Below are positions 6,092-63,919 of a stretch of 64,000 nucleotides of DNA, piece by piece. A program made the position numbers and the translations under genes. How positions within the stretch are numbered: the stretch's first letter is position 1; each line of letters begins with the position of its first letter. The DNA is from Candidatus Omnitrophota bacterium (GTDB taxonomy: Bacteria; Omnitrophota; Gorgyraeia; Gygaellales; Profunditerraquicolaceae), in NCBI GenBank assembly GCA_041650835.1, contig JBAZKL010000002.1:338472-402471 (forward strand), given 5' to 3'. A model generated the notes under the pieces. That model made no database searches, had not been told where the DNA came from, and worked only from the letters and a program-made list of their open reading frames with translations.

Positions 6092-6136
6092 GAATAACGA
6101 AAATAACGCAACTAACGATAATAACGATATTAACGA
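6092..6136. repeat. five tandem copies of a 9-nt unit (WWtaacga)
   Basis: aataacga/aaataacgc/aactaacga/taataacga/tattaacga read directly from the sequence. Confidence 0.55.
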
Positions 6137-6988: not shown

Positions 6989-7005
6989 AACACTTGGGTG
7001 GGACA

Positions 7006-8418: not shown

Positions 8419-8489
8419 AAGGAGGTGATTGGATTCAAGAGATTTAAAAGGGAAGGGCAACTAACACAATTAAAAGGGGGGCAGTAAAA

Positions 8490-9188: not shown

Positions 9189-9318
9189 TATTCTATAATA
9201 TTGCCTAATGGAACGACATGATCAAAAGGTAATAAAGTAATCTAACTTCAGGATACTAAAGGATTTATTCCTTTAGTATCCTGAGGTTTTTTAATTTCTG
9301 ACTAAAGGAGTGTCACGA

Positions 9319-10215: not shown

Positions 10216-10234
10216 ACGGCTACCATACACATCA

Positions 10235-13824: not shown

Positions 13825-14052
13825 TTCCTTCTGGCAACGCAGCCCCCCGATTAATTAATCGGGGCTGTCGCTTTGCGCCCCAGCATTACTGCTGGTTTGC
13901 CTTTTACAGTACTCGAAATTGTCAAACCGAACTCGGGCCGATCGCCCTTATCCCTATCTCCAATTAAAATATAACATATATTTACACATATTTCAAGTTT
14001 ACCGCGCTATTATTTTATCAATATCACAATGTGTCATTTTACCCTAAACACT

Positions 14053-38954: not shown

Positions 38955-39466
38955 GTGTATATTTTAACCGTTGAACCGTTAATACTCAGGTCAACCTCAT
39001 CCAGTGTAATTCTCTGAATTACCGCCCCTTCGATAGAATCGCCTTCTTTCACGATATGATTATTAATAAGCGCAAACCCTTCATTACCCGAGAAAAAAAC
39101 ACCATTTAAAGCAAAACCTGACGCGTCAGGCGTTTCGGAAGACGGCCGCGCGGGCACTTTCATTGTTTCTTTCGCCGCAGGGACAGCAATGGCGGCAGGC
39201 GGCGTTTTCGCTTGTTTTACCGCAGAATTCCGGAATGCCGGTAAAGAAATATTTTTCTCTACCGCCTTTTCTTGGCGCGGCTGCTTAGAAAAATGAGCAT
39301 TTATAAACGAGTACGCTGTTTTTGCCGTCAAAAACCCCAGGCAGCCGACAATAACATAAACAAGGGGGAGGGTCAGGTCGCGTTTTGGCTTCACTCCGGA
39401 AGGCGCATCTGTTTTTTGTTCCCGCGATTGTTCGACTTTTTTAAGAGCGTCATTGATAATACTCAT
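38942..39466 (-). CDS. GspB/ExeB-like general secretion pathway protein
   Basis: MSIINDALKK N-terminus, single TM, C-terminal GVFFSGNEGFALINNHIVKEGDSI; partner of the adjacent ExeA-like ATPase. Confidence 0.6.
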   Translation of the reverse strand: MSIINDALKKVEQSREQKTDAPSGVKPKRDLTLPLVYVIVGCLGFLTAKTAYSFINAHFSKQPRQEKAVEKNISLPAFRNSAVKQAKTPPAAIAVPAAKETMKVPARPSSETPDASGFALNGVFFSGNEGFALINNHIVKEGDSIEGAVIQRITLDEVDLSINGSTVKIYTYAK

Positions 39467-40338
39467 GGGTTTATGTCCTCAACGGCCAGCGAAGGCGCGA
39501 TCGCGTTCGTGTCCCGGGCATTCCCGCAGACACAATACGTATCCATTTCCTGCCGGCACTTGTTTATAATACCTGCGTTAATCTCATTGGTTTCTGCGAC
39601 GAAACCGGCCAACAAAGCACGGTCACAAAGAATATTAATGAGCCGCGGCGTGCCCGCGGAGAATTCCGTAATAGATCTAACCGCGTCGTCGGTAAATACT
39701 ATCCCGCCGTCATGCCCGGATATATTCAAACGATGCATAATATAATTCCTCGTTTCTAAAGCATCCAACGGAATAATATGGTAGCGCACCATGATCCGCT
39801 GGCGCAGCTGGCGTAACTCATAAAGGTTCAATTTCTGATTAAGCTCCGGCTGCCCGACTAAAATAATCTGGATCAACTTATCTTTTTCAGTCTCTAAGTT
39901 CGATAAAAGCCTGATCTGCTCTAACTGTGAAGGTTTGAGGTTCTGCGCTTCATCGATTATTAAAACGACATTATTATCCAGCTTCACCTGGCTCAAGAGG
40001 AACTTATTCAATTCGGAAATAAAGCCCAGTTTGGTTTTATTCCGGGCCTTAAGGCCGAAATCATTAATGATAGCTTCCAATAACTGTAATTCCGAAAGGC
40101 TGGGGTTTAGAATAAAGGCGGTTTTTACCCGGTCTCCTAATTTATCAAGAAAAAACCGGCATAAAGTAGTCTTACCAGTCCCGATCTCACCGGTAATTAC
40201 TGAAATCCCTTTACGCTGGCTGACACCGTAGAGGAGATGAGAAAAGGCTTCTTTGTGCTCTTTGCTTAAGAAAAAAAAGGAAGGATCAGAAGTAACATTG
40301 AACGGGCGTTCTCGTAAACCGTAGAATTTACAATACAT
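39463..40338 (-). CDS. ExeA/GspA-like AAA_22 ATPase
   Basis: MYCKFYGLRERPF N-terminus (compare ExeA MY…FGL…PF), Walker A GEIGTGKTT, Walker B VLIIDEAQN. ORF trimmed to ATG 40338. Confidence 0.7.
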   Translation of the reverse strand: MYCKFYGLRERPFNVTSDPSFFFLSKEHKEAFSHLLYGVSQRKGISVITGEIGTGKTTLCRFFLDKLGDRVKTAFILNPSLSELQLLEAIINDFGLKARNKTKLGFISELNKFLLSQVKLDNNVVLIIDEAQNLKPSQLEQIRLLSNLETEKDKLIQIILVGQPELNQKLNLYELRQLRQRIMVRYHIIPLDALETRNYIMHRLNISGHDGGIVFTDDAVRSITEFSAGTPRLINILCDRALLAGFVAETNEINAGIINKCRQEMDTYCVCGNARDTNAIAPSLAVEDINP

Positions 40339-40513
40339 AGTTGTATTATAACAAAGATATCTATTTTGTAAAGATAGAAGTAGGTTAGCGCAGAAGGCGC
40401 TACACCCCGCGCAAATTTTCTCCGGTATCACTATTGACAAATAGAATTTATGTGTTATAATTATCAAATAAGAGCAAGAAGCCACGGCTTACTCAAGCGA
40501 AAAAAAGGTAAGT

Positions 40514-49026: not shown

Positions 49027-49332
49027 TTATATTACGTTACGCTTGCGCTCAAGCGCTTTCTCAATATTAATTCTTTTGCCGGTCACCAGCATATCCGCCA
49101 AGGTCTTTCTGGCTTTTCTTAAGATCCGGCTTAGTGTTTGTTGGGATATTTGCATTGATCCCGCGGCCGCTTTTTGGCCTAATCCTTCAAAATCAACCAG
49201 CCGCACAGCCTCAAATTCATCAAGCTGTAAACACGCCTCATCAGGCCGGCCAGGACGCCCGCGCGGGCTGAAATGATCGACTTTAGGGGCATTCTTAACT
49301 AAACGCTTCTTTTTAGGCCTGCCGCGGATCAT
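49027..49332 (-). CDS. DUF134/UPF0251-family predicted DNA-binding protein
   Basis: MIRGRPKKKR…FSPRGRPGRP…EFEAVRLVDFEGL…QQTLSRIL, a sigma-70 region-4-like HTH. Confidence 0.65.
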   Translation of the reverse strand: MIRGRPKKKRLVKNAPKVDHFSPRGRPGRPDEACLQLDEFEAVRLVDFEGLGQKAAAGSMQISQQTLSRILRKARKTLADMLVTGKRINIEKALERKRNVI

Positions 49333-49454: not shown

Positions 49455-49620
49455 TTAAGACTTGTTGTCTCAGTAAAGTATAAAGATTAAAGACTAAATA
49501 ACAAAGGAAATTAAAAGGTTAAATAATAAATTTTAAAATTACCTGCCGGCAAGCAGGAACCTTTAATCTTTTAACTTTAATCTTCCTTTGTTATTTATCC
49601 TTTAGACTTTAGACTTAACT
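49455..49620. repeat. AT-rich palindromic intergenic repeat, copy 3
   Basis: See copy 2. Central hairpin cctgc-cggca-agcagg. Lies between the stop of the ligase gene and the start of the DUF134 gene. Confidence 0.5.
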
Positions 49621-52318
49621 TAATCAACCTCTGCCGCAAAGCCTCCGCGACAGCATCATAATCATCGCTTTTGAGCGCTCCCTGGCTTACTAATTCAGTA
49701 TAACTCAGCGGCTTTCCAATCGTAGCTCTTATCGCATGAAAACGGGGTATTTTTGTGTGCCGCGACCAGGCCTGGAATGTGCCTTCAATATAAACTGGTA
49801 CCAGAGGAATATTGAGCTCCTTAGCCAGGATCCCGATACCTTTTTTAAACTTGATCACCTCCCCTGCGGGATTGCGCTGCCCTTCAGGAAAGATACAAAC
49901 TATTTTCTTTTGAGCCAATAAATAAGAACAGATACGCATTGCCTCAACCATGTCCAGAGTGACATCGATCGGGATCAACCTGGCCATCTTAATTGAATCC
50001 CTGATAAAAGGCTGCAAAAAGATCCGCTTTAACCCTACAAAATATGTCTTAAGCAATATATGAAACGGCAATACCGCGGACATAACAAACCCATCCAAAT
50101 AACTGGAATGGTTCGCAAAGATTATATACGGCCCGCTTGCCGGCAGGTTCTTTTTGCCTTTAATGGATAAAAGGAACAATGCCCTCAAAACGCAGCGAAT
50201 TATGGTTATAACGAGTAAACCCGCGATCTTATCAATAAAATACGGCTTAAGCCTTACCATACTCAAAGTTTTAGGATGCGGCCGCTCAATCAGCATTTCC
50301 GACCATAACAATTCATCCCGATGAATATATTTTACATCTTGAGGGATAAAAGGCTCTAGTTTTAGCAATAGATCTCTAATAGTATGGGCAAAAAAGAATT
50401 CCGACTGTATGGACTCGGAAGCCTGAATATTCAAGAACCTGAAGAGTTCCAGAAGTAATTCGATCCTGCCTAAAGAATCAAGCCCCAGGTCCAACTCCAA
50501 ATGATCATCCAAATTGACCTTACGATTAAGCCGCTTTGATATCAACGCGAGTATTTTTCCGGAGATCTCCGAAGTAAAGGCGCCGGCGTCTTCACTGACG
50601 CCCCCCCTCTTCTCATTCTGAAAAACACTGCTTCCCTCTTGAACATACTTTGCCTCTATCTTATGGCGCATGATCTTGCCTAATGCGGTCCGCGGAAGCT
50701 TTTCTTTACTAATAATGAAGCCGGTAACACGCTTATAATTGCTTATTTGATGTGATAAATTATCCAATTCCCAGCGTATTTTCTCTTCAATATTGGCCAC
50801 TGCCCGGGAATTAAAATAATCCTCGTTAGGGACGATCACTGCCATAAGCTGCTTTGCCTCGCCGATAAAGCCCACCCGTGAAGCGACAAAAATACATATT
50901 TCTTTGATATAGGGGCTTAAAAGGTAGTGCCGTTCGATCTCTTCAGGGTTTATCTTCTTGCCGGAGCTTAAAACAATGATCTCATCTTTCCTGCCTTTGA
51001 TATAAAGATATCCGGATTTGTCAAAGTACCCCAGGTCTTCTGTCAGAAACCATCCATCTTTAAGCACCCGGGCGTTTTCCTGAGGCAACTGGTAATACCC
51101 CAACATCACATTCTCTCCCCGGATCGCGACTTTACCGATCCCCTGTTCATCCGGATCCAATATCTTTACCTGGACTCCGGGGATCGGTTTTCCAACAGTT
51201 CCGATCTTAGGCTTGAGCGGAGGATTGAACGTGACGACAGGAGACGTTTCGGTCAAGCCATAACCTTCCAAGATGGTGAATCCCCACTTAAAGAAATCGC
51301 GCATTATCGTTGTTTCGATCTTGGCACCCCCGGTAGTCATAAAACGCAATTTACTCCCAAAGACGGCATGCATTCTATGCAACAGGTATTTACTTAAATT
51401 CAACCCCGTTATTCTTCTCAGGGCCCACAATACCCAAATTAAAACCTGTATGCCTGAACGAAGCAGCACAGGGATCTTCTTAAACCTTTGCTTTATCGCT
51501 TTATGAAAGATCGAGAAAAATTGCGGCACCCCGACTAAAATACTCACCTTCGTCTGTACCATACAATCCAGTAAATCATCGGAATTCAAACTCGCCGGAT
51601 AACTGATCTGCGCGCCTAAAAGAAGCGGCACTAAACAAGTAACCATACATGAATAGGTATGATGAAGCGGCAGGAATGAGATCAAACAATCATTTTTGGT
51701 CACGAGCTTCAGTCTGCGGATCGAATCTATATTCGCTAAGAGATTAACCTGGGAAAGCATGACCGCCTTAGGCTGAGCCGTTGTCCCCGAAGTATAAAAC
51801 ATAGCCGCAACGGCTTCAAGAGGCCTAATGAGGGGTGCTTCCTGCAAACTTTTTGAGGCATGAGTAAGCTGTTCCTGAAAGGCGAGCGAATCAATAAGCA
51901 GTATTTCGACGCTTTTTAAGCCGTCCAGAAACGCGGTGTTTTGAGCGTAGGCCTTCTCCGCGCAAAGAATTATTTTTGACGAAGAATGTATTACTAACTG
52001 AGTAATATCAGGAGCCGGCAGGCGGACATCGATAGGCACGGCAACCGCGCCCGCGAATTGCACTGCCAGAAATGATACCGGCCATTCCACCTGGTTACCG
52101 ACAAGAATAGAGATCCTGTCGGATTTCGCTACCCCCCGCCGGACCAGTAAATTACCCATCGTGAGCGCTTTCTGATAGAGCTCAAGATAAGATATTTCAG
52201 AATATTCTTTATTATTTTTATGGAAAACGGCTGTTTTGGAAGGAGACGCTTTGGCTACTTGAGTGAATTCCTCGAATATACTGAGGCGATTTTGAGCCAT
52301 ATTTTTATATTGAAGCAA
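49595..52318 (-). CDS. tri-domain acyl-AMP ligase (AMP-binding) - acyl carrier (PP-binding) - PlsC-type acyltransferase
   Basis: AMP-binding motifs (FYTSGTTAQPKAV; YGLTETS; TEDLGYFD…GRKDEIIV). ACP-like LDDHLELDLGLDSLGRIELL (DSL). C-terminal FANHSSYLDGF (HX4D) and FPEG acyltransferase motifs. 907 aa. Confidence 0.8.
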   Translation of the reverse strand: MLQYKNMAQNRLSIFEEFTQVAKASPSKTAVFHKNNKEYSEISYLELYQKALTMGNLLVRRGVAKSDRISILVGNQVEWPVSFLAVQFAGAVAVPIDVRLPAPDITQLVIHSSSKIILCAEKAYAQNTAFLDGLKSVEILLIDSLAFQEQLTHASKSLQEAPLIRPLEAVAAMFYTSGTTAQPKAVMLSQVNLLANIDSIRRLKLVTKNDCLISFLPLHHTYSCMVTCLVPLLLGAQISYPASLNSDDLLDCMVQTKVSILVGVPQFFSIFHKAIKQRFKKIPVLLRSGIQVLIWVLWALRRITGLNLSKYLLHRMHAVFGSKLRFMTTGGAKIETTIMRDFFKWGFTILEGYGLTETSPVVTFNPPLKPKIGTVGKPIPGVQVKILDPDEQGIGKVAIRGENVMLGYYQLPQENARVLKDGWFLTEDLGYFDKSGYLYIKGRKDEIIVLSSGKKINPEEIERHYLLSPYIKEICIFVASRVGFIGEAKQLMAVIVPNEDYFNSRAVANIEEKIRWELDNLSHQISNYKRVTGFIISKEKLPRTALGKIMRHKIEAKYVQEGSSVFQNEKRGGVSEDAGAFTSEISGKILALISKRLNRKVNLDDHLELDLGLDSLGRIELLLELFRFLNIQASESIQSEFFFAHTIRDLLLKLEPFIPQDVKYIHRDELLWSEMLIERPHPKTLSMVRLKPYFIDKIAGLLVITIIRCVLRALFLLSIKGKKNLPASGPYIIFANHSSYLDGFVMSAVLPFHILLKTYFVGLKRIFLQPFIRDSIKMARLIPIDVTLDMVEAMRICSYLLAQKKIVCIFPEGQRNPAGEVIKFKKGIGILAKELNIPLVPVYIEGTFQAWSRHTKIPRFHAIRATIGKPLSYTELVSQGALKSDDYDAVAEALRQRLIKLSLKSKG

Positions 52319-53039
52319 GAAATTTTGGATAAAAACCGGTTTCTAACCCATCGAGAAAAAACTTAGTGAAGAATTGCGGATATTTCTTATAGAACTCATG
52401 CTCGATCTCTTCAATACAACCGACATACGGGGTCACCATGCCGTAATAATCAATTTCATGGCCGATAGGCTTAAAAACAAACCCATTCAAATCCAACAAC
52501 TTCCATAATGATTTCTCCATAAGCGCGTACCAATGGGTCAAGCCCCGGCGCTTACTCTCATGATATAGCTCTCGATACATGCCAAACGTCATGGTCCTGA
52601 TCCGGCGAAAAGGGTTATTAGAATTCCCCAAGAGGGCTTTTTCATCAAATTCAGGAGTATAATACAAACCGTCATCCTTGCGGCGCCGGTAATCTTTACT
52701 GATAACAAGACGCGAGATCTCAGCGATCTTATTACGGGGCACGCTTGTTTTATCAAATTGCAACCCGCTGCCGCAGCGCTCTTCGATCGGAAAACCTTCA
52801 GAAGAATCAAGGATAAGCCGCATAGTCCCGATCACTTCAAAATTATCCTCCACGACAAAATGAAGCGCGTACTGGTCATATTTGTCCTGTTCACGGTCAT
52901 CAGGGTATTCTTCTTCTTTAATAAAATGGCACTCTTCACAATACACCTGAAAACGCAAACGGTAAACCTGGTCCATTAAAACCGGTTCTTCAACGAACTT
53001 AAAGGTAAATGAGCTATGGCCTATAATTTCTTTATGCAC
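52305..53039 (-). CDS. FeeM-like N-acyl amino acid synthase (GNAT-related, PEP-CTERM/exosortase-associated type)
   Basis: …YRLRFQVYCEECHFI…GTMRLIL… pattern of the N-acyl amino acid synthase family; overlaps the ligase gene by 14 nt. Confidence 0.65.
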   Translation of the reverse strand: MHKEIIGHSSFTFKFVEEPVLMDQVYRLRFQVYCEECHFIKEEEYPDDREQDKYDQYALHFVVEDNFEVIGTMRLILDSSEGFPIEERCGSGLQFDKTSVPRNKIAEISRLVISKDYRRRKDDGLYYTPEFDEKALLGNSNNPFRRIRTMTFGMYRELYHESKRRGLTHWYALMEKSLWKLLDLNGFVFKPIGHEIDYYGMVTPYVGCIEEIEHEFYKKYPQFFTKFFLDGLETGFYPKFLASI

Positions 53040-53089: not shown

Positions 53090-53340
53090 ATAAGGCCTAA
53101 GCACGCCGAACGTGTCATCCCCGCATCTCCCTATCTGTCATCCCCGCATGCTTTAAGCGGGGATCCGCCGCAGCAGGCGGCGCACCCCGCGCAACTTCCT
53201 ATTAGCGCGGGGTGTATGCTCCCCGTCTCACTGTGTAGAATCTTTTAGATGCCCGCTTAGAGCCAAGTAAGCGACCGGGCATGACAATCTGAGCGTCATT
53301 GCGGCCTTGTTTACTTACTGTTTATGCGGGAATCAAAAAT
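53090..53340. repeat. array of GC-rich hairpins (REP-like) in the divergent intergenic region
   Basis: tgtcatccccgcat x2; hairpins atccccgcatgc…gcggggat, cgccgc-agcag-gcggcg, caccccgcgc…gcgcggggtg, atgcccg…cgggcat. Similar caccccgcgc hairpins occur at ~40380-40420, 5640-5780 and 17490-17530. Confidence 0.45.
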
Positions 53341-53388
53341 ACTCCCCCAAAAGCGGCAATTTGGCATATTTTATGCTATACTTATTAA

Positions 53389-54732
53389 ATGGAATTAAGA
53401 CAGAAATTTGAATTTAGGCGGGTTTTAGCCCCTGAAATGCGGCAATCGTTAAATATTTTAACGCTGCATTTACTTGACTTAAACCAAGTCGTAGAAGAAG
53501 AACTTCTTACAAACCCTGTTTTAGAGGAATTCTCGCCAAAAGAGGAGCTTCCCTCCCCCTTTTCCGCGGAAGATCTCGCGAAATTAAACTCTCATTCTAC
53601 TTTACCCGGTAATAACAGTCAGGCTCAAGATAATGAGCCCCACACCTCCCTCCTGATCAATAAAGTATCGCTGCAGGATATTTTATTGCGGCAGCTGGGC
53701 ATGTTTACCGATTCAGACGAAGATCTAAAGATTGGACAAGAAATTATCGGCAATATAGACGAAAACGGCTATTTACAAGCCTCACTTGAACAAATGGCTG
53801 TTCAATTGCAAGTTTCAGAGGCGGACCTCGACAAAGTGCTTTCGTTAATACATCAATTTGAGCCGGCCGGAGTAGGAGCTCGAAACATTTCTGAATGCCT
53901 GCTCATACAATTAAAATTAGCCAATGAGCTGGACCCGCTCACTAAATCAATATGCCTGCAGCATCTTGACGATGTCGCCAAGAAGAATTTTAACCATATC
54001 TCAAAGAAATTAAAGGAACCCCAGGAAAAAATAGAGCTATCAATTAAAAAGATCTTAAAATTAAACCCGAAACCCGGCCGGAATTATTCCCTGGATGAGG
54101 CCCACAGGATCGTGCCCGATATCATTATCGAAGAAAAAGGCGATGGATTCGGAATAATTATCAATCATGAATATGTCCCGCGGCTTACCGTCAGTAAACT
54201 ATACAAAGACCTGCTTAAAAAAGAAAATCTCGACCTTAAAACAAAGGAATTTATCACCAACAAACTAAGGAAAGCCCTTGAATTGATCAAAGCTATTGAA
54301 AAAAGGCAAAGCACATTACGCAGGGTAGTTACTACTATAACCGAGATCCAAGGTGAAGCGATACGGGAAGACCTCTCTCAGATCAAACCGCTAACCTTTA
54401 AGGAAATTGCGGAAAAGCTTGAATTGCATGAATCAACCGTTTGCCGGGTAGTAATGAATAAATACGCGAAAACTCCCTGCGGGGTTATCGCGCTCAAGAA
54501 TTTCTTTTCAAGCCACATCCATCATAAAAACGGCGAATCTATCTCTTCAACCGTAGTTAAAAGCCGCATTAAAGAATTAATCGACAAAGAAAACAAAAAA
54601 CAACCGTTAAGCGACCAAGATATAGTAAAGATCCTCTCTAGTGAAGATAACTTAAACCTCGCCAGGCGTACCGTGGCAAAATACCGCGAAGAGCTGAAGA
54701 TCCTTTCCTCTCCATTCAGAAAAGAACGCTAA
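53389..54732 (+). CDS. rpoN: RNA polymerase sigma-54 factor
   Basis: Region I (LAPEMRQSLNILTL), core-binding region, C-terminal RpoN box (ARRTVAKYRE) and HTH. Confidence 0.9.
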   Translation: MELRQKFEFRRVLAPEMRQSLNILTLHLLDLNQVVEEELLTNPVLEEFSPKEELPSPFSAEDLAKLNSHSTLPGNNSQAQDNEPHTSLLINKVSLQDILLRQLGMFTDSDEDLKIGQEIIGNIDENGYLQASLEQMAVQLQVSEADLDKVLSLIHQFEPAGVGARNISECLLIQLKLANELDPLTKSICLQHLDDVAKKNFNHISKKLKEPQEKIELSIKKILKLNPKPGRNYSLDEAHRIVPDIIIEEKGDGFGIIINHEYVPRLTVSKLYKDLLKKENLDLKTKEFITNKLRKALELIKAIEKRQSTLRRVVTTITEIQGEAIREDLSQIKPLTFKEIAEKLELHESTVCRVVMNKYAKTPCGVIALKNFFSSHIHHKNGESISSTVVKSRIKELIDKENKKQPLSDQDIVKILSSEDNLNLARRTVAKYREELKILSSPFRKER

Positions 54733-54826
54733 ATAAAGATGCCCGCTTTCGCGGGCATCTAAAACACAAAAACCAACATCGGAATTTCTTCCAACGTTGG
54801 TTTTAAATATTATTTACCCGATAAAT

Positions 54827-55813
54827 CTACGAATGCAACGCCACGCTTGCCAGATCAACGATCCTATTGATCAAATTCATGCTGTTGAGATTGAATTTGA
54901 CCGATGAACTCGCCAAAGTCCCCAGGTTAATAACTCCCTGCATCTCACTTTTGATCTTGATCGGAATGATCATCGATGAACTGATATAGGGACGGTGGAG
55001 GTAGCGCTTTACTCTATTATCTTTCAGATTATCATCGATCAAAAGAGAGGCTTTCTCTTTTAACGCGATGCCGGAAACCCCCTCTTCTAACCCGATATTA
55101 GTAGTTCTCACAACCTCATCAGAAAGCCCTTTTGAAGCGCGGATAGTAAGTTTATTCTTACCTTCATCGAGAAACATTACCGACCCGATATCCGCGCCGC
55201 TGATCTGAAAGGCGGCATCAAGTAAAACCTCTAATATCCGGTTAAGCTTCAATACATCGACTGAAATCGCTTCTTTAGTCTTAAACGTCGACTGATACGC
55301 CAGTTTAAGGATATATTCATAAATATCCCTGATGAATTCTATCAAGGACTGCGCCCAATTAAAAGAAACAACCTTTATTTCCAATAAAGCATTCCATAAA
55401 TCATCCAGGTCTAAACCGAGATCGTCAGCGGCAGAGGCGTATTGCTCTTTTGTTTTACGCCTTACTAAAATAACCGGCCCCATGACCAAATACGCGAACA
55501 CCTTATTATCCACCTTAAGCGGTGCAATGCAATTATGCATGCCAGCGCAGGTGACAAAATTAAGATTTCTGTCCACAACGCCTTTGCCTCCGAGAAATGT
55601 CGGTAAGCACCTGCCGCAAACCCGGTTTTTCATAGACTGGTCATTCAAGAGCTCCCTGCAGAGACGGGGTTCGCCGCTGGGAGCGGTCAGTGAGCTTCCT
55701 TTGGGATCGACAATACGCAGCCCCAACTCAGTAATTGCGGAAAAACTATCCTGGATATTCTGCCATTTCTTAAGGTCGATGATATTTCTTATCTCTAATT
55801 CATTCGTATTCAT
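54827..55813 (-). CDS. PocR-like sensory domain + GAF domain protein (no output domain)
   Basis: N-terminal Cys-rich PocR-like region (…CRELL…CGRCL…CAGMHNCIAP), C-terminal GAF (…GSVMFLDEGKNKLTIRASKGL…EEGVSGIAL…). Confidence 0.5.
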   Translation of the reverse strand: MNTNELEIRNIIDLKKWQNIQDSFSAITELGLRIVDPKGSSLTAPSGEPRLCRELLNDQSMKNRVCGRCLPTFLGGKGVVDRNLNFVTCAGMHNCIAPLKVDNKVFAYLVMGPVILVRRKTKEQYASAADDLGLDLDDLWNALLEIKVVSFNWAQSLIEFIRDIYEYILKLAYQSTFKTKEAISVDVLKLNRILEVLLDAAFQISGADIGSVMFLDEGKNKLTIRASKGLSDEVVRTTNIGLEEGVSGIALKEKASLLIDDNLKDNRVKRYLHRPYISSSMIIPIKIKSEMQGVINLGTLASSSVKFNLNSMNLINRIVDLASVALHS

Positions 55814-55819
55814 ATGCAG

Positions 55820-57220
55820 TTATTTCTTTAAGAGGCCGTATTTACGCATCTTTTTATATAAAGTCGTCCTATTGATCCCGAGCGCCGAAGCCGCATCATT
55901 ACGGCTCCAATTCACCGTTTCAAGGGCTTTTAATATTAAGTCCTTTTCAGGTGATTTCAAAGCTTCCCTTAATTTTAAATAGTTTTCTTCAGAAGTCAAC
56001 TGATTTGTATTCCCGAGCTTATGCAAATATTCAGGTAAATCCACAGGCGTGATCACCGGCCCCTGGGATAAAATGATCGCCCGCTCTATGACATTTTCTA
56101 ACTCCCTGACATTCCCGGGCCATTGATAACTTTTCAATATTGCCAACGCCTCATCAGATAATCCCTCGATCTTTTTATTGATATGTTCAGAATGTTTCTC
56201 GATAAAGTCTTCAGCCAAAAGCGGAATATCATTTTTGCGCTCCCGCAAAGGAGGAAGGTCAATTGCAATAATATTTAAACGATAATAGAGGTCCATGCGA
56301 AACGTACCTTTAGCGATCAAATCCTGGAGGTTCTGATTTGTCGCGGCAATAACGCGGACATCGACCTTGAGGGTCTTAGTATCGCCGACACGCTCAAACT
56401 CACCCTCTTGCAGGACGCGTAATAGTTTTACCTGTAACGCCGGTGAAAAAGCGTCAATTTCGTCTAAGAATATCGTCCCTCCATCGGCTAATTCAAAACG
56501 GCCGACCCTGTCCCGGATAGCCCCGGTAAACGCTCCTTTGACATGGCCGAAAAGCTCGCCTTCCAGCAACGTTTCGGTTAAAGCCCCGCAGCTTACTTCA
56601 ACGAATGGCTTCTCCCTCTCCACCGCGTTGTATTTATGTATCGCGTGCGCGATTATACGCTTTCCGGTCCCGCTTTCACCCTGTAGCAAGACAGTCGCCC
56701 TGGTCTTGGCAATAGCTTCGACCAACGAGTAAATTTTCTGCATTTTCTCGTCTTTACCGACCACATTATGAAAACGGCTCCTTTGAGTAGCGGATAATTG
56801 CTCCTTGAGTTTGATGTTTTCTTCCTCAAGCTGGCGCTCTTTCAACAGCCGCTCGATAACAAGCTTAATTTCGCTGTCGACGATAGGTTTCGTAATATAA
56901 TCATACGCCCCTTCTTTTACCGCTTCGACCGCGTTTTCAATGCTTCCATAACCGGTGATCATAATGACAGGCGTATCCTGATGGTCTTTCTTTATCTGTT
57001 TTAATAACTGAGTCCCGTCCATCTCGGGCATTTTAATATCGCTTATCACAAGATCAACCGTATAACTCTTGAGGAAATCGATGGCTTCTTTGCCGTTATT
57101 CGCGGAACTAACGGTATAGCCCGAAAGCGTCAAAAGCTCAGTAAGAGACCCCCGAACTAAAGGCTCATCGTCAACAACAAGGATATGCCCGTTTTTATTG
57201 GAATCTGTATTATGAAGCAT
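55820..57220 (-). CDS. sigma-54-dependent response regulator (NtrC family: REC + AAA+ + Fis-HTH)
   Basis: REC (ILVVDDE…DIKMP), sigma-54 activator (GESGTGK…GAFTGA…ESELFGH-type GAFTG motif), C-terminal HTH (AASALGINRTTLYKKM). Confidence 0.9.
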   Translation of the reverse strand: MLHNTDSNKNGHILVVDDEPLVRGSLTELLTLSGYTVSSANNGKEAIDFLKSYTVDLVISDIKMPEMDGTQLLKQIKKDHQDTPVIMITGYGSIENAVEAVKEGAYDYITKPIVDSEIKLVIERLLKERQLEEENIKLKEQLSATQRSRFHNVVGKDEKMQKIYSLVEAIAKTRATVLLQGESGTGKRIIAHAIHKYNAVEREKPFVEVSCGALTETLLEGELFGHVKGAFTGAIRDRVGRFELADGGTIFLDEIDAFSPALQVKLLRVLQEGEFERVGDTKTLKVDVRVIAATNQNLQDLIAKGTFRMDLYYRLNIIAIDLPPLRERKNDIPLLAEDFIEKHSEHINKKIEGLSDEALAILKSYQWPGNVRELENVIERAIILSQGPVITPVDLPEYLHKLGNTNQLTSEENYLKLREALKSPEKDLILKALETVNWSRNDAASALGINRTTLYKKMRKYGLLKK

Positions 57221-58418
57221 TTTTTAAGAATGATTTCGGGATTAAAATAGTAAAAGAACTCCCCTTTTTAACAACGCTCTGCACCTTAATTGATCCGCCG
57301 TATTTATTAACGATCTCCTGACTGATCGCCAAGCCTAATCCCGTGCCTTTATCCATGCTTTTTGTAGTAAAAAACGGCTCAAAGATCCGCTTTAAGACCT
57401 CTTCCGGTATGCCGAAACCTGTGTCCGCGATGGTAATAGCGACAAACGATTCCTTAAGCGCGGTCTCTATCTCTAAAACACCCCCCTTAGGCATAGCATC
57501 CAAGGCATTCTCAATAATATTAATCACCACATGGGACAAGCCAAAATCCATGATTTTCGGAAGCTCAACATTATAATTCTTCGTTATCTTAATATTACCT
57601 TCCAGGGCCTCCCCAAAGACGTCTAAGGATTCATCAATCAAAGAATGAATATCAATGTAGTGTTTATGGTGCGCAGTACTTAAATTTATCTGGCGCGAGA
57701 ACTCCAAGAGCGAACGAGTGATCTTAGCAATACGGTTTAATCCTTTAGTGATCTCCAAAAGATACTCCCTCATTGCCGAATTATCCTCCATCTGGTCGAG
57801 CAGGATATTAGCGTATCGAATAACCCCGTCGAGGGGATTATTGATCTGATGAACGACACCCGCGGCAAGCTTTCCTACCGAAGCGTATTTTTCTAATAAC
57901 ACCTTCTGCTTGTCTAAAGCCTCATTTTCCTGCTTTAACCCGGTATAACTATTCAAACTTTCCAGAGCCAGGCAGGCGTATTTAGAGATCGTGACCGCGA
58001 GATTAAGGTCCTCTTCCGAGAAATGCTCACCCGTTGATTTATCCGCTAAATTGATCAATCCCAAAAGCCGCTCAGAGGTGAAAATAGGTATAGACATGAA
58101 CGAATTAGTCTGGTAATGCGTATATCCATTCTGCTTAAAACGGGAATCAGAATTAATGTCTTTGACAAGAACAGGGGTTTTTATATCAGCGACTTTGCCG
58201 GAGATCCCTTCCCCCAGCCTTTGGCGCAATTCTTTCAAATGAGTGTTTTCAGGGACATAAAATGAATTAAGGACAAGCTCTTTTTGCTCGCAATCAAACA
58301 AAAACAAAGACCCACGATCCGCGTGCACCACCGCCATTATCTCTTTGAGCGTCCTGCTTAAAAAATGCTTCAGGATCCCGCCGGAATCCTTATTTTCTAA
58401 TATCCTGAGTTCTGTCAT
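57210..58418 (-). CDS. soluble GAF-sensor histidine kinase
   Basis: GAF, then HisKA ([12 protein letters not shown]), then HATPase (ENALDAM…DTGFGIPEE…GTGLGLAI). No TM segments. Confidence 0.85.
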
Positions 58419-59263
58419 GGCTTATTCAACTCCTTAAGTAAAAGCGCAGATACTTTACTATACCTGCTTTTGGGATACTCCTTGTTCAATCGAGTGAGTA
58501 TCTCTTGTGCCTTTCCTTTATCTTTTAACTGCTTGGCATATATAATGGCCATTTCAAACATCGCTCCGTCCATTTTCGCTTTACCATTAAACTTTTCAAT
58601 AACTGTTTCGAAAGTTTTAGCGGCCATCTGCCAATCTTTTATGGCTATATAGCATTGCGATACTAATAAATAAGCGTTAAAGGCTAACAAAGAATTCGGA
58701 TACGCCTCAATAAGCGTTTTATATTGCCCTATGGCATCCTGATAGGCGGCGAGCATCTTTTCAGGTTGATATTTGACCTTATAATACTGGGCAATAAATA
58801 TCGGGATATCAAGGGCCTTGACCGTAGTCGGATATTCCCGGGTGATCTTTTTATACTGCTCTAAAGCAGCGCTCCATTTATCCTGCAACTGATAGGTATT
58901 ACCGATGAGGAAAAGAGCTTCGGAACAAATAACCGGCGATTTTTTATTTGCCTGCAGTATCTTCTGCAGCTGTTTACGGGCTGAATCGTATTCTTCTTTT
59001 ACAATATATAAACGGGCAGTATTAAATGAGGCTTCAATTGCCAGCGGATTCTTGGAATTCTCAACAATAAACGCATCTGTTCTCTTCACTACCTGCTCTA
59101 ATTCATGGGGAGGCGAAGCAGCAGGATTTTTGAAAATCTTTTCCCCCAGTTTCTTGATCTTCCAGTATTTTTTCTCGATCGAATACTGATCATTTGAAGC
59201 ACACCCTAAAAATGCTAAAACCATTAAAAGAGAAACGATTTTTAAAATGGAGGCTTTTGTCAT
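58415..59263 (-). CDS. TPR-repeat lipoprotein
   Basis: Lipobox LAFLGC-AS, multiple TPR-like helices; co-operonic (4-nt overlaps) with the HK and the membrane protein. Confidence 0.65.
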   Translation of the reverse strand: MTKASILKIVSLLMVLAFLGCASNDQYSIEKKYWKIKKLGEKIFKNPAASPPHELEQVVKRTDAFIVENSKNPLAIEASFNTARLYIVKEEYDSARKQLQKILQANKKSPVICSEALFLIGNTYQLQDKWSAALEQYKKITREYPTTVKALDIPIFIAQYYKVKYQPEKMLAAYQDAIGQYKTLIEAYPNSLLAFNAYLLVSQCYIAIKDWQMAAKTFETVIEKFNGKAKMDGAMFEMAIIYAKQLKDKGKAQEILTRLNKEYPKSRYSKVSALLLKELNKP

Positions 59264-60183
59264 TTTTGTATTTCTTCAGCAATACCCAAGGTTTTATTAT
59301 CTTGTAATAGGCTATCTTTTTTCATAAGGTAATACAATGCGGTAGAAACAGTAATCGACACATCGACAAACAAAGAAGTGATCAGTACATTTAGGAAAGC
59401 AATAAACAACACTAATTCCGGGTAAAACTTATTTATGATTAAAAGCGTATTATACTGCAAAATAATAATTGGCACATACGCCAACATAGGAATACCGACT
59501 AACACAATAGTTGGAAAGAAAGACTTAAAGAATAAACCGCATGATTTCAGAAGCGCCTTAAAAGGATTAACTTTTTCAATCACCAAAACTGGAATAACGT
59601 AAGCAAAACAAGCCTGAATTAAAACTGAGATCAAAAAACTAATACTAGATAAGAGAGGGCCAAACCACATAGCCGGTTTTAAGAATAAAAGTGTTTTGTG
59701 GCCGGTAAGAAAATATTTCCTTAAACCCACTGAGGGTAACTGCAAAGCTCCCTGGAATATTATAGTAATGATCAGTACTACAAGAAAAAAAGCGGCATAT
59801 TTCCTAAAGGACGCTTTAAAAACATTGATCATCCTTACCGCTCTCTTCTCATAAAGATTAGAAATTACTTGAACCGCCACAGCGCTTAAATATGATCCCG
59901 CTAAAATCGATAAAACAGTACGAGTAATACCTGCTAACTTCGGAATTAAAACAAAATTCATTGGATAATGCAAGAACCTTTCTCCAAAGAAAGCTTTGAT
60001 AGGCGGACCTAAAACAATAACAAACGGCATACGGGGAGAAATGTAGATAAAAATCAACGCGAGTAATTCAAGAATCGTAAAGATAGCAAAGGGGATAAAT
60101 AGTAACTTATTGTGTTTCAGGAGACTAAAAGTATTATTGTATACTTTTTTTAATGATGGGTATTTAGTGGTCTGAGGATTCAT
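59260..60183 (-). CDS. polytopic membrane protein of unknown function (≥7 TM)
   Basis: Hydrophobicity pattern only. No exosortase-type CSG/Arg signature recognised. Confidence 0.45.
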   Translation of the reverse strand: MNPQTTKYPSLKKVYNNTFSLLKHNKLLFIPFAIFTILELLALIFIYISPRMPFVIVLGPPIKAFFGERFLHYPMNFVLIPKLAGITRTVLSILAGSYLSAVAVQVISNLYEKRAVRMINVFKASFRKYAAFFLVVLIITIIFQGALQLPSVGLRKYFLTGHKTLLFLKPAMWFGPLLSSISFLISVLIQACFAYVIPVLVIEKVNPFKALLKSCGLFFKSFFPTIVLVGIPMLAYVPIIILQYNTLLIINKFYPELVLFIAFLNVLITSLFVDVSITVSTALYYLMKKDSLLQDNKTLGIAEEIQK

Positions 60184-60404
60184 TAAACCTCTTATTAATC
60201 ATAATGTTTATAATTTGAAACAACTTGTTTAAGTATACCATTACCATGTTTATTTGTCAAGCTTGCAACCTTTTAATTCACAGCATATTACGTATCTCGA
60301 AAAAAAAAGGGGCAAACCATATTGATTTGCCCCCTCTTATTTGCACCTTCGAAAATGCACCTATGAGGGTGGCATTTCGGAATCATTATTGTGACAAAGA
60401 AAGC

Positions 60405-60995
60405 CTAGGACTTTCTTTTTAAACCAAATAATCCCAAAATACCCATCCCTAATAACATCATACTTGTGGGTTCCGGAATAGCAGTTGTCACCACAAATTT
60501 TGCTCCAGTATTTGAATAATGGCAGTCAGGGTCAATTCCAAACCCATAATTACCATTGGATGAATATTGAGTCAACAAATCAAGCTGTTCGGGCGTGAAA
60601 GTGTATACCCAATTTTCCGTAGCAACATCGGTATCAGTATACGATGTTAACAATGTTCCCTGGCCACTAAAATAATCTTCCATCGTTTCAGGATGGAAAT
60701 AAGCGGCATCATCCCAAATCTGAACAGTTCCCGCAGACATATCATTCAATAAATGTATATACATAGCGTTATCTGCAAAAGGCTCGTTATTAATATTATC
60801 AATACTCAAATACGCGCCTGTGATCGTATCTCCTTCCATAAGAGACCAATCGATACCCCATGTATATGCATAATAATGATCGAGATTCCACAGATTCTCA
60901 GGAGACGGCTGAAACATATATGTAGACGCAAACGCTGAAGTAGAGCCCACGACACCTAAGACGATCACAAAAAGGATAAAAAGGTACTTCTTCAT
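60405..60995 (-). CDS. PEP-CTERM sorting-signal secreted protein
   Basis: Signal peptide; C-terminal IPEPTSMMLLGMGILGLFGLKRKS (PEP + TM + basic tail). Confidence 0.8.
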   Translation of the reverse strand: MKKYLFILFVIVLGVVGSTSAFASTYMFQPSPENLWNLDHYYAYTWGIDWSLMEGDTITGAYLSIDNINNEPFADNAMYIHLLNDMSAGTVQIWDDAAYFHPETMEDYFSGQGTLLTSYTDTDVATENWVYTFTPEQLDLLTQYSSNGNYGFGIDPDCHYSNTGAKFVVTTAIPEPTSMMLLGMGILGLFGLKRKS

Positions 60996-61087: not shown

Positions 61088-62152
61088 CTATAGAACTTTC
61101 TTCTTTCTCAGTTTCTTAGCTGCCGCTAATGTTAATCCACCGACACCAAATAGTAACATTGAGACGGGTTCCGGAACAACCGTTGTAGGATTCAGCAGAA
61201 AAGCGGTAGCTACACCATTATAAGTTCCAGTTCCAATCATCTGCCCCTTTTCATTGATCGCATTAGCAAGCTGCAATGACCATCCGCTTGCAGGATCTAT
61301 TAACCCAGACAAATCCCTCACCCCATTAATGCTATCCCATAAGAATGCTTGACCATTAGCACCACCTACTACCCAACCGGAATTATTAATACTAGTAGCG
61401 CTGCTAGAACTACCCGCTAATGCGTCTAAGAAAAGAGTTGAACCGGCATCAATGTCCCAAATCGTAGGCACATAGCTACCCGAAACCATTGTTTGCCCAA
61501 CCACAACTTTACTATCATTAATATCCGAAGCGGAGCTTTGAGCTGTTGAAATACTCTGCATTGCACCATCCCAAAAAAACGCATGGTTGTAACCGTCGGT
61601 TCCAGCGGAAGAACCAACAACTTGTCCTGCGCTATTTATGTTGCTTGCACCACTTGATGTCCCCCCCAGTGATCCCAAAATTTGCGTACTACCGCTATTA
61701 TCAACGATAAAACCTCTAACATAACCTATCGGATAACGCATATAAGCGTCTCCAACAATTTCGCCACTGTCGTTTATACTATAAGCATTACTCCAAAATG
61801 ATGATCCAACTCCTTTGTCTTGCATACCATCACTATTGCTCCAACAAAAGGCGTTAGATAACCCACTGGATCCAGCGATTTGCGATGTACCAACTATTTG
61901 ACCTAAGTTATTAATAGCTAACGCTCTCGCCCAAGAACCGCCTAAAGTGCCGATATCTTGCACCTGCCCAGTAATATCCCATATAACAGCACGTTCAGAA
62001 CCGCCTATGTTACGGCTTCCAACAATCTGATCCATCTCATTAATACCATACGCATTCCCGGACCCAAGATTAACAACATCATAATCATAAGCAAGCGCGG
62101 ATTGAATTAAACAAGAAAAAAACAGCACGATTAAAACAAATACTCTCTTCAT
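61088..62152 (-). CDS. HAF-repeat PEP-CTERM protein
   Basis: Repeats of the HAF extracellular-repeat type (AYSINDSGEIVG, SNINSAGQVVGSS, SATSINNSGWVVG, ANAINEKGQMIG); C-terminal VPEPVSMLLFGVGGLTLAAAKKLRKKK. Confidence 0.8.
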   Translation of the reverse strand: MKRVFVLIVLFFSCLIQSALAYDYDVVNLGSGNAYGINEMDQIVGSRNIGGSERAVIWDITGQVQDIGTLGGSWARALAINNLGQIVGTSQIAGSSGLSNAFCWSNSDGMQDKGVGSSFWSNAYSINDSGEIVGDAYMRYPIGYVRGFIVDNSGSTQILGSLGGTSSGASNINSAGQVVGSSAGTDGYNHAFFWDGAMQSISTAQSSASDINDSKVVVGQTMVSGSYVPTIWDIDAGSTLFLDALAGSSSSATSINNSGWVVGGANGQAFLWDSINGVRDLSGLIDPASGWSLQLANAINEKGQMIGTGTYNGVATAFLLNPTTVVPEPVSMLLFGVGGLTLAAAKKLRKKKVL

Positions 62153-62303
62153 CTTTTTTGCCCCCTAAATTTTTTGATACCTGTCAACACCCCAGCCCCG
62201 AGCAAAAAAAGAATCGAGCTCACAGGCTCTGGAGCAACGGTTCCGGTCACACTCAGGTAAGGCCTATAGCTAGAACTAGCTTCATCCGAAGAAAAAATCC
62301 GAC

Positions 62304-63032
62304 TTATTTCTTCTTCATACCCCCTAACAATCCCAAAAGGCCAATACCTAACAGTGATAAAGATGCTGGTTCAGGAACCGGGCTCGCTTGGCCCTTTAAA
62401 TAATCGTTGGCGCAAGTCGCTCCGCCATAGAAGACATTAAAAGAACCATCGTAATTATTAAGGAAAGAAGTATCCACAACAGCTTCTACCATATAACGCG
62501 GTCCATTACCGAGAAGTTGGTTCCAAACAACATTGCTTTGCAAATCCAAGAAGCCACCGTTAGCAATAGTCACGATTTGATTATCATGATAAACATACCC
62601 TGCTCCGGGATATGGCCAGGAGTGGCCAACCGTAGGATCATAAACATTAGACAAATTCCAGGTGGACACACTATAGAGCCCGCCAGAAGTAAGGCCATTA
62701 TGCCCCGTAAAAGCTACTCCATACTCATAGATCCCATCCTTATTCAGATCCAAAGCCAGATCAGCCGGTAAAGTATTCCAACCGCCGGTTTGTTCTCCGG
62801 TAGAAGGATAATTGGTAAAAAGATCAAAAATCAAATTTGAGCCAACTTGACTGATATTCATACCGTAAAGTTCATACATATTATCGCCTATTCGGTCAAA
62901 TGACTGAGCATCGCGCCCGCTGTTCCAATAAAAAGCATCGCCAACCGGATCATTAATGGTATAGGCGAAAGCGGTCCCTCCGAGCAACAATATACTTACA
63001 AAACTCAATACTACTAATGTTAATTTTCTCAC
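62304..63032 (-). CDS. PEP-CTERM sorting-signal secreted protein
   Basis: Signal peptide; C-terminal PVPEPASLSLLGIGLLGLLGGMKKK. Confidence 0.8.
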   Translation of the reverse strand: MRKLTLVVLSFVSILLLGGTAFAYTINDPVGDAFYWNSGRDAQSFDRIGDNMYELYGMNISQVGSNLIFDLFTNYPSTGEQTGGWNTLPADLALDLNKDGIYEYGVAFTGHNGLTSGGLYSVSTWNLSNVYDPTVGHSWPYPGAGYVYHDNQIVTIANGGFLDLQSNVVWNQLLGNGPRYMVEAVVDTSFLNNYDGSFNVFYGGATCANDYLKGQASPVPEPASLSLLGIGLLGLLGGMKKK

Positions 63033-63046
63033 TATGATTTCCCTTT

Positions 63047-63919
63047 CTAATTAGCGCCTTTTCCTGTAAAAACAACAAAAACAGTCTGGGCTAATATCCT
63101 CATTTCAACCCACAAACACATCTTTTTAATGTATAAAAGATCATATTTTACTTTTTTCCTGACATCAGCTATTGTTTCATCGTACCTATTATATATCTGA
63201 GAAAGGCCGGTTATACCAGGCTTGACAATAAGCCTTTTTTCATAGTCGCAAATAAGTTTCTTAAAATCCCTGACCATTTCAGGCCTTTCCGGCCGAGGGC
63301 CGACAATGCTCATTTCACCCTTTAAAACATTAAATAACTGAGGGATTTCATCAATTCTGGTCTTTCTTAGGAATTTTCCAATAACGGTAATACGAGGATC
63401 ATTCCTTTTTGCCCAAACTGCACCCGTCCCTTTTTCCGCATCAACCCTCATAGTTCTCAACTTATATATTTTAAATGTCTTGCCACCTCTGCCTACCCGA
63501 TTTTGCTGATAAACTATTGATCCTCGAGAATCAATTTTGATAAAAATTGAAGCAAGAATGAGCAATGGCGCGCCAATAATCAAACCAATTATAGCTAATA
63601 CTATATCTAAAACTCTTTTGATCTTCCGGAAGCTTCTGCGCACAAAACTAACAATAAGACCACCGATCCCACCCAAAACAAACAAAAACGAGCTAGGTTC
63701 AGGAGCTTGAGTCTTTTTTACTGGAACTTGATTGAACTCAATCCCCATCTGATTATTTTGTTCATAGGATATCGAATTACCCAAGAAAGTAATCGCAAAG
63801 ATATCCTTTCCCCTTAAAACAGGCTCCAAAACAAAAAGCGTCATTATTAATAATATTCCGATACTAATCCTTTTCATAGTTTGTTTAAATTTAAGTTTTA
63901 TTATATTTTTTTTTCCCAT
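63047..63919 (-). CDS. polyprenyl-phosphate glycosyl-phosphotransferase ('bacterial sugar transferase', priming) with an N-terminal PEP-CTERM-like extension
   Basis: Catalytic region KRVLDIVLAIIGLIIGAPLLILASIFIKIDSRGSIVYQQNRVGRGGKTFKIYKLRTM…GITGLSQ is typical of WbaP-C/PglC-type transferases. The preceding 95 aa read like a signal peptide followed by QAPEPSSFLFVLGGIGGLIVSFVRR. Confidence 0.75.
   Translation of the reverse strand: MGKKNIIKLKFKQTMKRISIGILLIMTLFVLEPVLRGKDIFAITFLGNSISYEQNNQMGIEFNQVPVKKTQAPEPSSFLFVLGGIGGLIVSFVRRSFRKIKRVLDIVLAIIGLIIGAPLLILASIFIKIDSRGSIVYQQNRVGRGGKTFKIYKLRTMRVDAEKGTGAVWAKRNDPRITVIGKFLRKTRIDEIPQLFNVLKGEMSIVGPRPERPEMVRDFKKLICDYEKRLIVKPGITGLSQIYNRYDETIADVRKKVKYDLLYIKKMCLWVEMRILAQTVFVVFTGKGAN

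Follow-up and report, generated by a model that had tools for sequence, protein, structure and literature searches.

The window analysed in this study is a 64-kb stretch of DNA from a Candidatus Omnitrophota metagenome-assembled genome, and its subject is the interval 53389-60183, in which rpoN, the gene for the sigma-54 factor of RNA polymerase, lies beside the genes for a two-component system, two envelope proteins and, further to the right, a set of PEP-CTERM proteins. Genes were identified by a listing of open reading frames (ORFs) together with Pfam and NCBIfam (TIGRFAM) profile scans, and membrane segments by a hydropathy scan. All five genes that a first-pass annotation had named in this interval were recovered where it had placed them, and a sixth that it had left unmentioned was found, encoding a PocR and GAF domain protein of 328 amino acids (aa). 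We consider it fairly probable, at roughly 0.7, that the locus provides the regulatory half of a surface system of the exosortase/PEP-CTERM type in Omnitrophota, operating by the mechanism proposed below. Its genes and predicted signals are as follows.

53361-53383, plus strand: predicted rpoN promoter region, with an extended -10 element (TGCTATACT) ending 6 nucleotides (nt) before the ATG
53389-54732, plus strand: rpoN, RNA polymerase sigma-54 factor, 447 aa (TIGR02395, 388.4 bits against a cut-off of 277.35)
54737-54804, in the gap between rpoN and the PocR-GAF gene: two hairpin terminators, with stems at 54804-54769 and 54760-54737
54827-55813, minus strand: soluble PocR and GAF sensor protein without output domain, 328 aa (PocR 90.7 bits, GAF_2 52.6 bits)
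55820-57220, minus strand: NtrC-family sigma-54 enhancer-binding response regulator, 466 aa (Pfam Response_reg, Sigma54_activat, AAA_lid_14, HTH_8)
57210-58418, minus strand: GAF-HisKA-HATPase histidine kinase, 402 aa (Pfam domains; H-box HQINNPL at residue 190)
58415-59263, minus strand: tetratricopeptide repeat (TPR) lipoprotein, 282 aa (TPR_6, TPR_19 and TPR_2 repeats)
59260-60183, minus strand: 307-aa polytopic membrane protein encoded at the head of the operon, with a CysZ / choline-transporter-like fold and from a family not described before
60260-60232, minus strand: predicted sigma-70 promoter of the five-gene operon (TTGACA-17-TATACT with TG, 11/12 matches, the best of the region)
60300-60337, minus strand: intrinsic terminator ending the sugar-transferase/PEP-CTERM operon (hairpin of -22.4 kcal/mol, z = -5.6, then nine U)
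60405-60995, minus strand: PEP-CTERM protein, 196 aa (PF07589, 29.4 bits against 20.7; tail IPEPTSMMLLGMGILGLFGLKRKS)
61088-62152, minus strand: HAF-repeat protein with a PEP-CTERM tail, 354 aa (TIGR02913, 81.2 bits; tail VPEPVSMLLFGVGGLTLAAAKKLRKKK)
62149-62250, minus strand: ORF of 33 aa (73 codons from stop to stop) with little beyond the PEP-CTERM tail VAPEPVSSILFLLGAGVLTGIKKFRGQKR
62304-63032, minus strand: PEP-CTERM protein, 242 aa (PF07589, 26.4 bits)
63047-63919, minus strand: short polyprenyl-phosphate sugar transferase, 290 aa (TIGR03025, 294.9 bits against 295.55; Bac_transf domain)
64000-63985, minus strand: predicted sigma-54 (-24/-12) promoter of the sugar-transferase/PEP-CTERM operon (TTGGCATGGTTAATGCT / (T)TGGCATGGTTAATGCT), cut by the window end
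Outside the window, at 9768-9779 of L001, the contig beyond the window end: candidate enhancer palindrome TGAAARCGYTTTCA, about 150 bp 5' of the -24 element

Gene order across Omnitrophota and the sigma-54 gene

The five genes of the minus-strand operon follow one another in the order membrane protein, TPR lipoprotein, kinase, regulator and PocR-GAF protein, with overlapping start and stop codons at the first three junctions and a gap of 6 nt between the regulator and PocR-GAF, the last gene. Their predicted sigma-70 promoter lies just past the terminator of the operon to the right, in which a PEP-CTERM protein, the HAF-repeat protein, the 33-aa ORF, a further PEP-CTERM protein and the sugar transferase are encountered in that order, the sugar transferase being the first gene of the predicted sigma-54-driven transcript. 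On the other side rpoN is convergent to the five genes and hairpin terminators lie between, so that it is linked to the operon by position and not by co-transcription.

Gene order was mapped with tblastn and called genes in 18 loci from species-representative genomes, obtained through an alignment of membrane-protein homologues, and in five further loci obtained through rpoN homologues and chosen solely for their long contigs, the fifth of which is cut by a contig end. L001 itself holds the exosortase, EpsI and the enhancer. Loci were regarded as informative when rpoN is present and the contig extends beyond its far side, and all 12 informative Omnitrophota loci (12/12) carry one block of sugar transferase, PEP-CTERM genes, membrane protein, TPR protein, kinase, regulator, (PocR-GAF) and convergent rpoN. 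Eight of them were found through the membrane protein (L001, L002, L004, L005, L007, L008, L010, L012) and four through rpoN (L023, L025, L026, L027). The gap between PocR-GAF and rpoN sometimes holds insertions such as toxin-antitoxin genes or a transposase, and the linkage persists. Given that the arrangement recurs, rpoN included, in every informative locus, it is not a matter of chance.

The rpoN product has all three expected Pfam domains (Sigma54_AID, Sigma54_CBD and Sigma54_DBD), a perfect RpoN box, ARRTVAKYR, at residue 425, and no hydrophobic segment in the hydropathy scan. The sigma-54 clusters of Omnitrophota number in the hundreds and, at 53-64% identity, make up one orthologue series. 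This orthologue occurs widely in the phylum and its exosortase-locus context is kept in every informative locus inspected, hence it has the appearance of the lineage's principal sigma-54, not of a recent duplicate specific to this locus. The gene could instead be a second, dedicated paralogue, the housekeeping rpoN lying elsewhere in the genome. In Proteobacteria the usual context of rpoN is lptB-rpoN-hpf, and the location of the Omnitrophota gene outside that context, together with its persistence beside the same activator across the clade, would fit such a specialised copy; however, a single orthologue series whose informative members all share one context is the pattern of a principal rpoN, and the domains and RpoN box are canonical, so we regard a dedicated paralogue as improbable.

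An extended -10 element (TGnTATAMT) is found 6-10 nt 5' of the rpoN ATG in L001, L002, L007, L008 and L010, and no Shine-Dalgarno sequence lies upstream of the start. The closeness of the element to the ATG and the missing Shine-Dalgarno sequence suggest that sigma-70 transcribes rpoN into an mRNA with little or no leader. A sigma-54-like motif, TTGGCATATTTTATGCT, overlaps this promoter in the close clade L001, L004 and L005, and is absent from L002, L007, L008, L010 and L012. Autoregulation of rpoN by sigma-54 was therefore rejected as a general feature, the extended -10 being conserved instead, and is at most a possibility for those three close relatives.

The sugar-transferase promoter and its upstream palindrome

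The first-pass annotation had proposed a search for sigma-54 promoters before the PEP-CTERM genes and the sugar transferase. Its strict pattern, TGGCAC-N5-TTGC, gave 0 matches in the window with up to one mismatch, and was replaced by a score anchored on GG-N10-GC. The best match of this relaxed scan is the -24/-12 element 66 nt 5' of the sugar-transferase ATG, of the form TTGGCAYG-N4-ATGCT. Across 742 kb of non-redundant locus sequence, both strands included, YTGGCAY-N6-TGCT occurs 25 times against about 0.5 expected. Fifteen of these copies stand immediately 5' of the sugar transferase or of the first PEP-CTERM gene, as predicted sigma-54 promoters in 15/15 loci, always in sense orientation. 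Four more copies (two in L013, one each in L015 and L025) lie directly 5' of genes encoding a signal peptide and a PEP-CTERM tail. The expectation that PEP-CTERM genes are preceded by sigma-54 promoters was thus borne out in the relaxed form, the strict form having failed. Within the window, reading of the intergenic DNA revealed no sigma-54 promoter belonging to the PEP-CTERM genes at 60405-60995 and 61088-62152 themselves.

Copies of the element in the window read as a near-palindrome, GCAT-N5-ATGC, as would be seen if TGGCAY-N5/6-TGCT were the operator of some other, palindrome-binding regulator instead of a sigma-54 promoter. The invariant positions are nevertheless the -24 GG and -12 GC of sigma-54 promoters, together with the flanking TTGGCAYG, and in L023 (CCTGCT) and L013 (GTTGCT) the palindrome is broken while GG-N10-GC is kept. 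Moreover, orientation to the downstream gene is constant and the element co-occurs with rpoN and the activator, which leaves the operator explanation very improbable.

A third exact copy of TGGCAT-N5-ATGCT occurs in the window at 34969-34985 (minus strand), antisense within a gene for an HD-GYP-like domain of cyclic di-GMP (c-di-GMP) phosphodiesterases (34351-35412, plus strand); it may have arisen by chance or may represent a sigma-54 site, intragenic or antisense.

Farther upstream in L001, L002, L004, L005 and L023, the palindrome GAAA(A/G)CG(C/T)TTTC is found 150-153 bp 5' of the -24 element; in L021 the distance is 121 bp, and the DNA between palindrome and promoter is not conserved. This spacing is, as judged from the sequence, the geometry expected of a bacterial enhancer, and TGAAAACGCTTTCA is a candidate DNA target for the helix-turn-helix (HTH) domain of the regulator. 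Inside the window the palindrome has matches at chance level only (2 against 1.4 expected).

A near-perfect copy, TGAAAACGCTTTCT (6141-6154), abuts an array of five tandem 9-bp units, AATAACGAA, in the region 6093-6154. Array and copy are situated in a 1.4-kb intergenic region 5' of four secreted-looking proteins without family match (6994-13039), and a complementary 9-bp array is seen 5' of the sugar-transferase enhancer in L001 (9490-9532).

Signalling proteins, envelope proteins and the proposed circuit

The regulator has the architecture of a receiver domain, a sigma-54 AAA+ domain and a Fis-type HTH, with GAFTGA at residue 229, Walker A GESGTGK at residue 181 and the receiver aspartate in SDIKMP near residue 61. 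No other protein of the 64-kb window has GAFTGA, and no retrieved locus has more than one such protein. Its scores fall under the cut-offs of every family model compared: PrsR (TIGR02915, 421.0 bits against 502.6), NtrC (TIGR01818, 417.8 against 558.6), AtoC (NF008469, 486.7 against 714) and ZraR. On these scores it is a sigma-54 enhancer-binding response regulator outside all curated orthologue groups scored. The best 120 homologues are 70-78% identical to it; those with a named source are almost all labelled Omnitrophota, and the names given by NCBI are generic, such as 'sigma-54 dependent transcriptional regulator'. The closest solved sequences are NtrC1 and NtrC4 of Aquifex aeolicus (PDB 4l4u, 1ny5, 3dzd; E = 1e-108 to 1e-93), which share the full-length receiver-AAA+-HTH layout, whereas their targets and sensor partners are unrelated and the resemblance is at family level only.

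The best NCBIfam score being that of AtoC, and the NtrC score being about equal to that of PrsR, the protein might be taken for an NtrC- or AtoC-type metabolic regulator whose adjacency to PEP-CTERM genes is coincidental. All of these family scores are, however, far below cut-off, glnA, ntrB and ato genes are missing from the neighbourhood, which consists of exosortase-system genes, and exosortase synteny is kept in 12 loci; in addition, the only conserved sigma-54 promoters found precede sugar-transferase or PEP-CTERM genes. We give a coincidental adjacency hardly any credence.

The kinase matches the PrsK model (TIGR02916) with 102.7 bits against a cut-off of 300, and solely in its C-terminal kinase half (profile positions 404-679). 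It carries a GAF domain and no hydrophobic segment, as might be expected of the cytoplasmic, GAF-sensing kinase that the first-pass annotation had described. The PocR-GAF protein and the regulator likewise showed no hydrophobic segment in the hydropathy scan, and PocR-GAF directly follows the regulator in L002, L004, L005, L007, L008, L010, L011, L017, L023, L026 and L027.

The TPR protein possesses a single N-terminal hydrophobic segment, residues 1-24, ending in the lipoprotein-type AFLGC, and its shortness, pointed out earlier, holds at 282 aa. It reaches 29 bits on the PrsT model (TIGR02917), under the cut-off of 312.2, and is barely over that of the CpoB/YbgF model TIGR02795 (91.6 against 90.1 bits) by its C-terminal TPR_6 repeats alone; no tol-pal genes are found in its neighbourhood. 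The 307-aa membrane protein heads the operon, as first described, and belongs to no known family: neither Pfam nor NCBIfam gives a match, even with the threshold relaxed to E<=5. Its resemblance to the CysZ sulfate permease and to CTL1/PNS1 amounts to 6-8% sequence identity, membership of the CysZ/EI24 sequence family was not found, and unlike those transporters its context is an exosortase and not sulfur or choline metabolism. The idea that it is a detached N-terminal domain of PrsK was rejected, there being no similarity between the two in profile hidden Markov model (HMM) comparison.

It has to be considered whether the membrane protein and TPR lipoprotein provide the sensory input of the kinase, as the equivalent, divided over two proteins, of PrsT and the membrane domain of PrsK, relaying an envelope signal. 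The first four genes are co-transcribed with overlapping starts and stops, the kinase, a soluble protein, lacks a periplasmic sensor, and in Proteobacteria PrsK and PrsR occur together with TPR proteins of the PrsT type (PMC1569441). On the contrary, the pair is found where those partners are not: L015 and L018-L020 have the order membrane protein-TPR-exosortase, followed by EpsI where the contig reaches that far, in L021 the membrane-protein gene stands 3' of the sugar transferase, and in none of these five loci was a match to kinase, regulator or rpoN found on the DNA retrieved (10 kb either side in L019). In L017 the genes for kinase, regulator and PocR-GAF come after membrane protein, TPR, exosortase and EpsI, which keep their usual order. 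The pair is thus kept with the exosortase where kinase and regulator are absent from the retrieved DNA, suggesting that it tracks the exosortase and not the two-component system. Given also the transporter-like CysZ/CTL fold of a membrane protein without HMM similarity to PrsK, an envelope or sorting accessory is the more likely role for the two proteins, and a sensory input is rather unlikely.

From the genes, their domains, the conserved promoter and enhancer motifs and the synteny, we infer a circuit in which the three cytoplasmic proteins act on the sugar-transferase promoter. A constitutive sigma-70 promoter would drive the five-gene operon, supplying two envelope components and a signalling set of three cytoplasmic proteins. 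An intracellular cue, presumably sensed by the GAF and PocR domains, would lead the kinase to phosphorylate the activator, and the output-less PocR-GAF protein probably modulates the kinase as a co-sensor. The activator would then bind the palindromic enhancer about 150 bp 5' of the TTGGCAYG-N4-ATGCT promoter and, using ATP, open the complex of the sigma-54 holoenzyme at the sugar-transferase promoter. As a consequence the priming sugar transferase and three PEP-CTERM proteins would be switched on as one operon, ending at the 60300-60337 terminator, while the required sigma-54, encoded next door, would be transcribed separately from its extended -10 sigma-70 promoter.

Several points weigh against this reading. 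The strict promoter pattern found nothing, and the -12 element reads ATGCT where the consensus is TTGCW. The 15 promoter-bearing loci are related, hence they are not 15 independent events, and the downstream PEP-CTERM genes of the window, without promoters of their own, are presumed to be read from that of the sugar transferase. The regulator scores best as AtoC and has no special affinity for PrsR (421 bits, beside 418 for NtrC and 487 for AtoC), its pairing with this particular enhancer is suggested by adjacency and co-conservation only, and the circuit as a whole is known from the sequence of an uncultivated lineage.

In Proteobacteria, sigma-54 sites have been described upstream of PEP-CTERM genes along with PrsK, PrsR and PrsT (Haft et al. 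2006, PMC1569441), and RpoN1-dependent transcription of the PEP-CTERM gene pepA has been shown experimentally in Aquincola (PMC9850573). With regulator, kinase and TPR protein all under the PrsR, PrsK and PrsT cut-offs (TIGR02915/02916/02917), the layout is divergent, as the first-pass annotation had supposed, and not a PrsKRT set. The Omnitrophota locus resembles the system of PrsK, PrsR and PrsT with XrtA in that a kinase and an NtrC-type sigma-54 activator lie near an exosortase, glycosyltransferases and a TPR protein, and that a -24/-12 promoter with an upstream enhancer precedes PEP-CTERM genes. It differs in having a soluble kinase with a GAF sensor where PrsK is transmembrane, a TPR protein of 282 aa where the PrsT profile has 899 positions, an added PocR-GAF protein, CysZ-like membrane protein and syntenic rpoN, a promoter that heads an operon starting with the sugar transferase in place of single PEP-CTERM genes, and a host in the phylum Omnitrophota and not in the Proteobacteria. 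It is most likely a lineage-specific Omnitrophota variant of the known sigma-54 control of PEP-CTERM genes, a functional analogue of PrsK/PrsR/PrsT outside those families; a search of the available literature found no earlier description of the Omnitrophota circuit.

Omnitrophota are uncultivated and mostly very small cells, for which surface proteins and polysaccharides probably matter in attachment. Regulators outside the Proteobacteria were noted by Haft et al. as still to be found (PMC1569441), and the locus supplies such a regulator with different sensors (the GAF kinase and PocR-GAF), a defined promoter and enhancer motif, and a sigma-factor gene nearby. As a compact sensor-to-promoter module with known DNA sites it could be rebuilt in a surrogate host, making the regulation testable. 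It also brings forward the CysZ-like membrane protein and the short TPR lipoprotein, both undescribed and exosortase-associated, and a sugar transferase with an internal sorting signal.

The exosortase side and neighbouring genes

The internal PEP-CTERM motif of the sugar transferase, APEPSSFLFVLGGIGGLIVSFVRRSFRK, occupies residues 72-95 (window 63614-63703, minus strand) between the N-terminal signal-anchor and the catalytic domain, scoring 20.9 on PF07589 against a gathering threshold of 20.7. It is conserved in seven loci (L001, L002, L004, L005, L007, L011 and L012), and L008 has PEF for PEP. The motif may dock the sugar transferase on the exosortase or make the enzyme itself a substrate; the 2006 paper on PEP-CTERM makes no mention of an internal motif in the sugar transferase (PMC1569441). 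A bolder proposal, which we hold to be unlikely, is that the sigma-54 of this clade is essentially single-purpose, a cassette of about 12 kb uniting enhancer and target promoter with the sigma factor, both cytoplasmic sensors and the sole activator, and the exosortase surface system forming its entire regulon, and that the internal PEP-CTERM signal couples glycan initiation to sorting. If true, this signal would provide a physical link between glycan initiation and protein sorting by the exosortase.

The 33-aa PEP-CTERM ORF is situated between two PEP-CTERM genes and overlaps the HAF gene at its start; it may be what is left of a gene, or a mini-substrate.

In L001, just past the window, EpsI (TIGR02914, 87.9 bits against 42.8) and an exosortase of the EpsH family with 8 transmembrane segments (TIGR02602, 156.8 bits against 105.55) complement the PEP-CTERM proteins of the window, which places the locus within a PEP-CTERM/exosortase system. 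The exosortase resembles XrtA, XrtW and XrtD as a general EpsH-family member with separate EpsI, whereas it remains under the cut-off of every named Xrt subtype, with 178.1 bits against 208 for XrtA (TIGR03109), 178 against 425 for XrtW and 170 against 400 for XrtD. This fits the suggestion, made when the locus was first noted, that it may define an exosortase subsystem variant. The enzyme differs from those subtypes also in coming directly after a cluster of secretin, GspC-like PDZ, PilM/N fusion and GspE-like ATPase genes.

This type-II-secretion or type-IV-pilus-like set, at 478-8022 of L001, is compact and lies immediately before the exosortase and EpsI. Its members are two GspC-like PDZ proteins, the PilM/N fusion, the secretin and a GspE/PilB ATPase, and the arrangement is kept in L002, L004 and L005. 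It may be an outer-membrane route for PEP-CTERM cargo.

On the far side of rpoN, an operon diverging from it carries the following two genes.

52305-53039, minus strand: PEP-CTERM/exosortase-system-associated acyltransferase, GNAT/FeeM-like, 244 aa (TIGR03694, 190.7 bits against 111.95)
49595-52318, minus strand: fusion of fatty-acyl-AMP ligase, carrier protein and acyltransferase, 907 aa (Pfam AMP-binding, PP-binding, Acyltransferase), second gene of the operon

The acyltransferase gene is preceded by a sigma-70-like promoter, TTGACA-17-TAATAT, at 53090-53062, and a conserved position of the ligase fusion next to rpoN is limited to close relatives (L004, L005 and L006). A gene for a DUF134-like small HTH protein lies at 49027-49332 (minus strand). 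Its counterpart is found on the opposite strand 5' of rpoN in L002, L023, L027 and L028, directly adjacent in L002 and L028, and the acyltransferase and ligase genes of the window look inserted between the DUF134 gene and rpoN.

GC-rich repeats occur within AT-rich intergenic DNA at 53100-53230, at 9560-9660 of L001 and in intergenic regions of L004 and L005. In the window GTCATCCCCGCAT is present twice, at 53114 and 53137, and CACCCCGCGC forms an inverted repeat at 53183 and 53214, while AAGACCCGGTCTT palindromes are seen in the matching intergenic regions of relatives. These repeats may be of the repetitive extragenic palindromic (REP) or miniature inverted-repeat transposable element (MITE) type.

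The remaining 49 kb or so of the window, to the left of the locus, consists of housekeeping genes. In this part an ExeA-like ATPase gene at 39463-40485 (minus strand) scores 305 bits, just under the cut-off of 324.5, on TIGR03015, the 'XrtA/PEP-CTERM system-associated ATPase'; the closest locus gene, the ligase fusion at 49595, is 9 kb away, and an unassigned ORF of 174 aa comes next after the ATPase gene, at 38942-39466 (minus strand). A c-di-GMP-I riboswitch of the GGC variant was found at 13829-13910 (minus strand; 64.5 bits against a gathering threshold of 59), 5' of an ORF of 120 aa at 13053-13415. Other signs of c-di-GMP signalling are the MshEN domain in the exosortase-adjacent GspE-like ATPase and the PilZ genes near rpoN in L023, L025 and L028.

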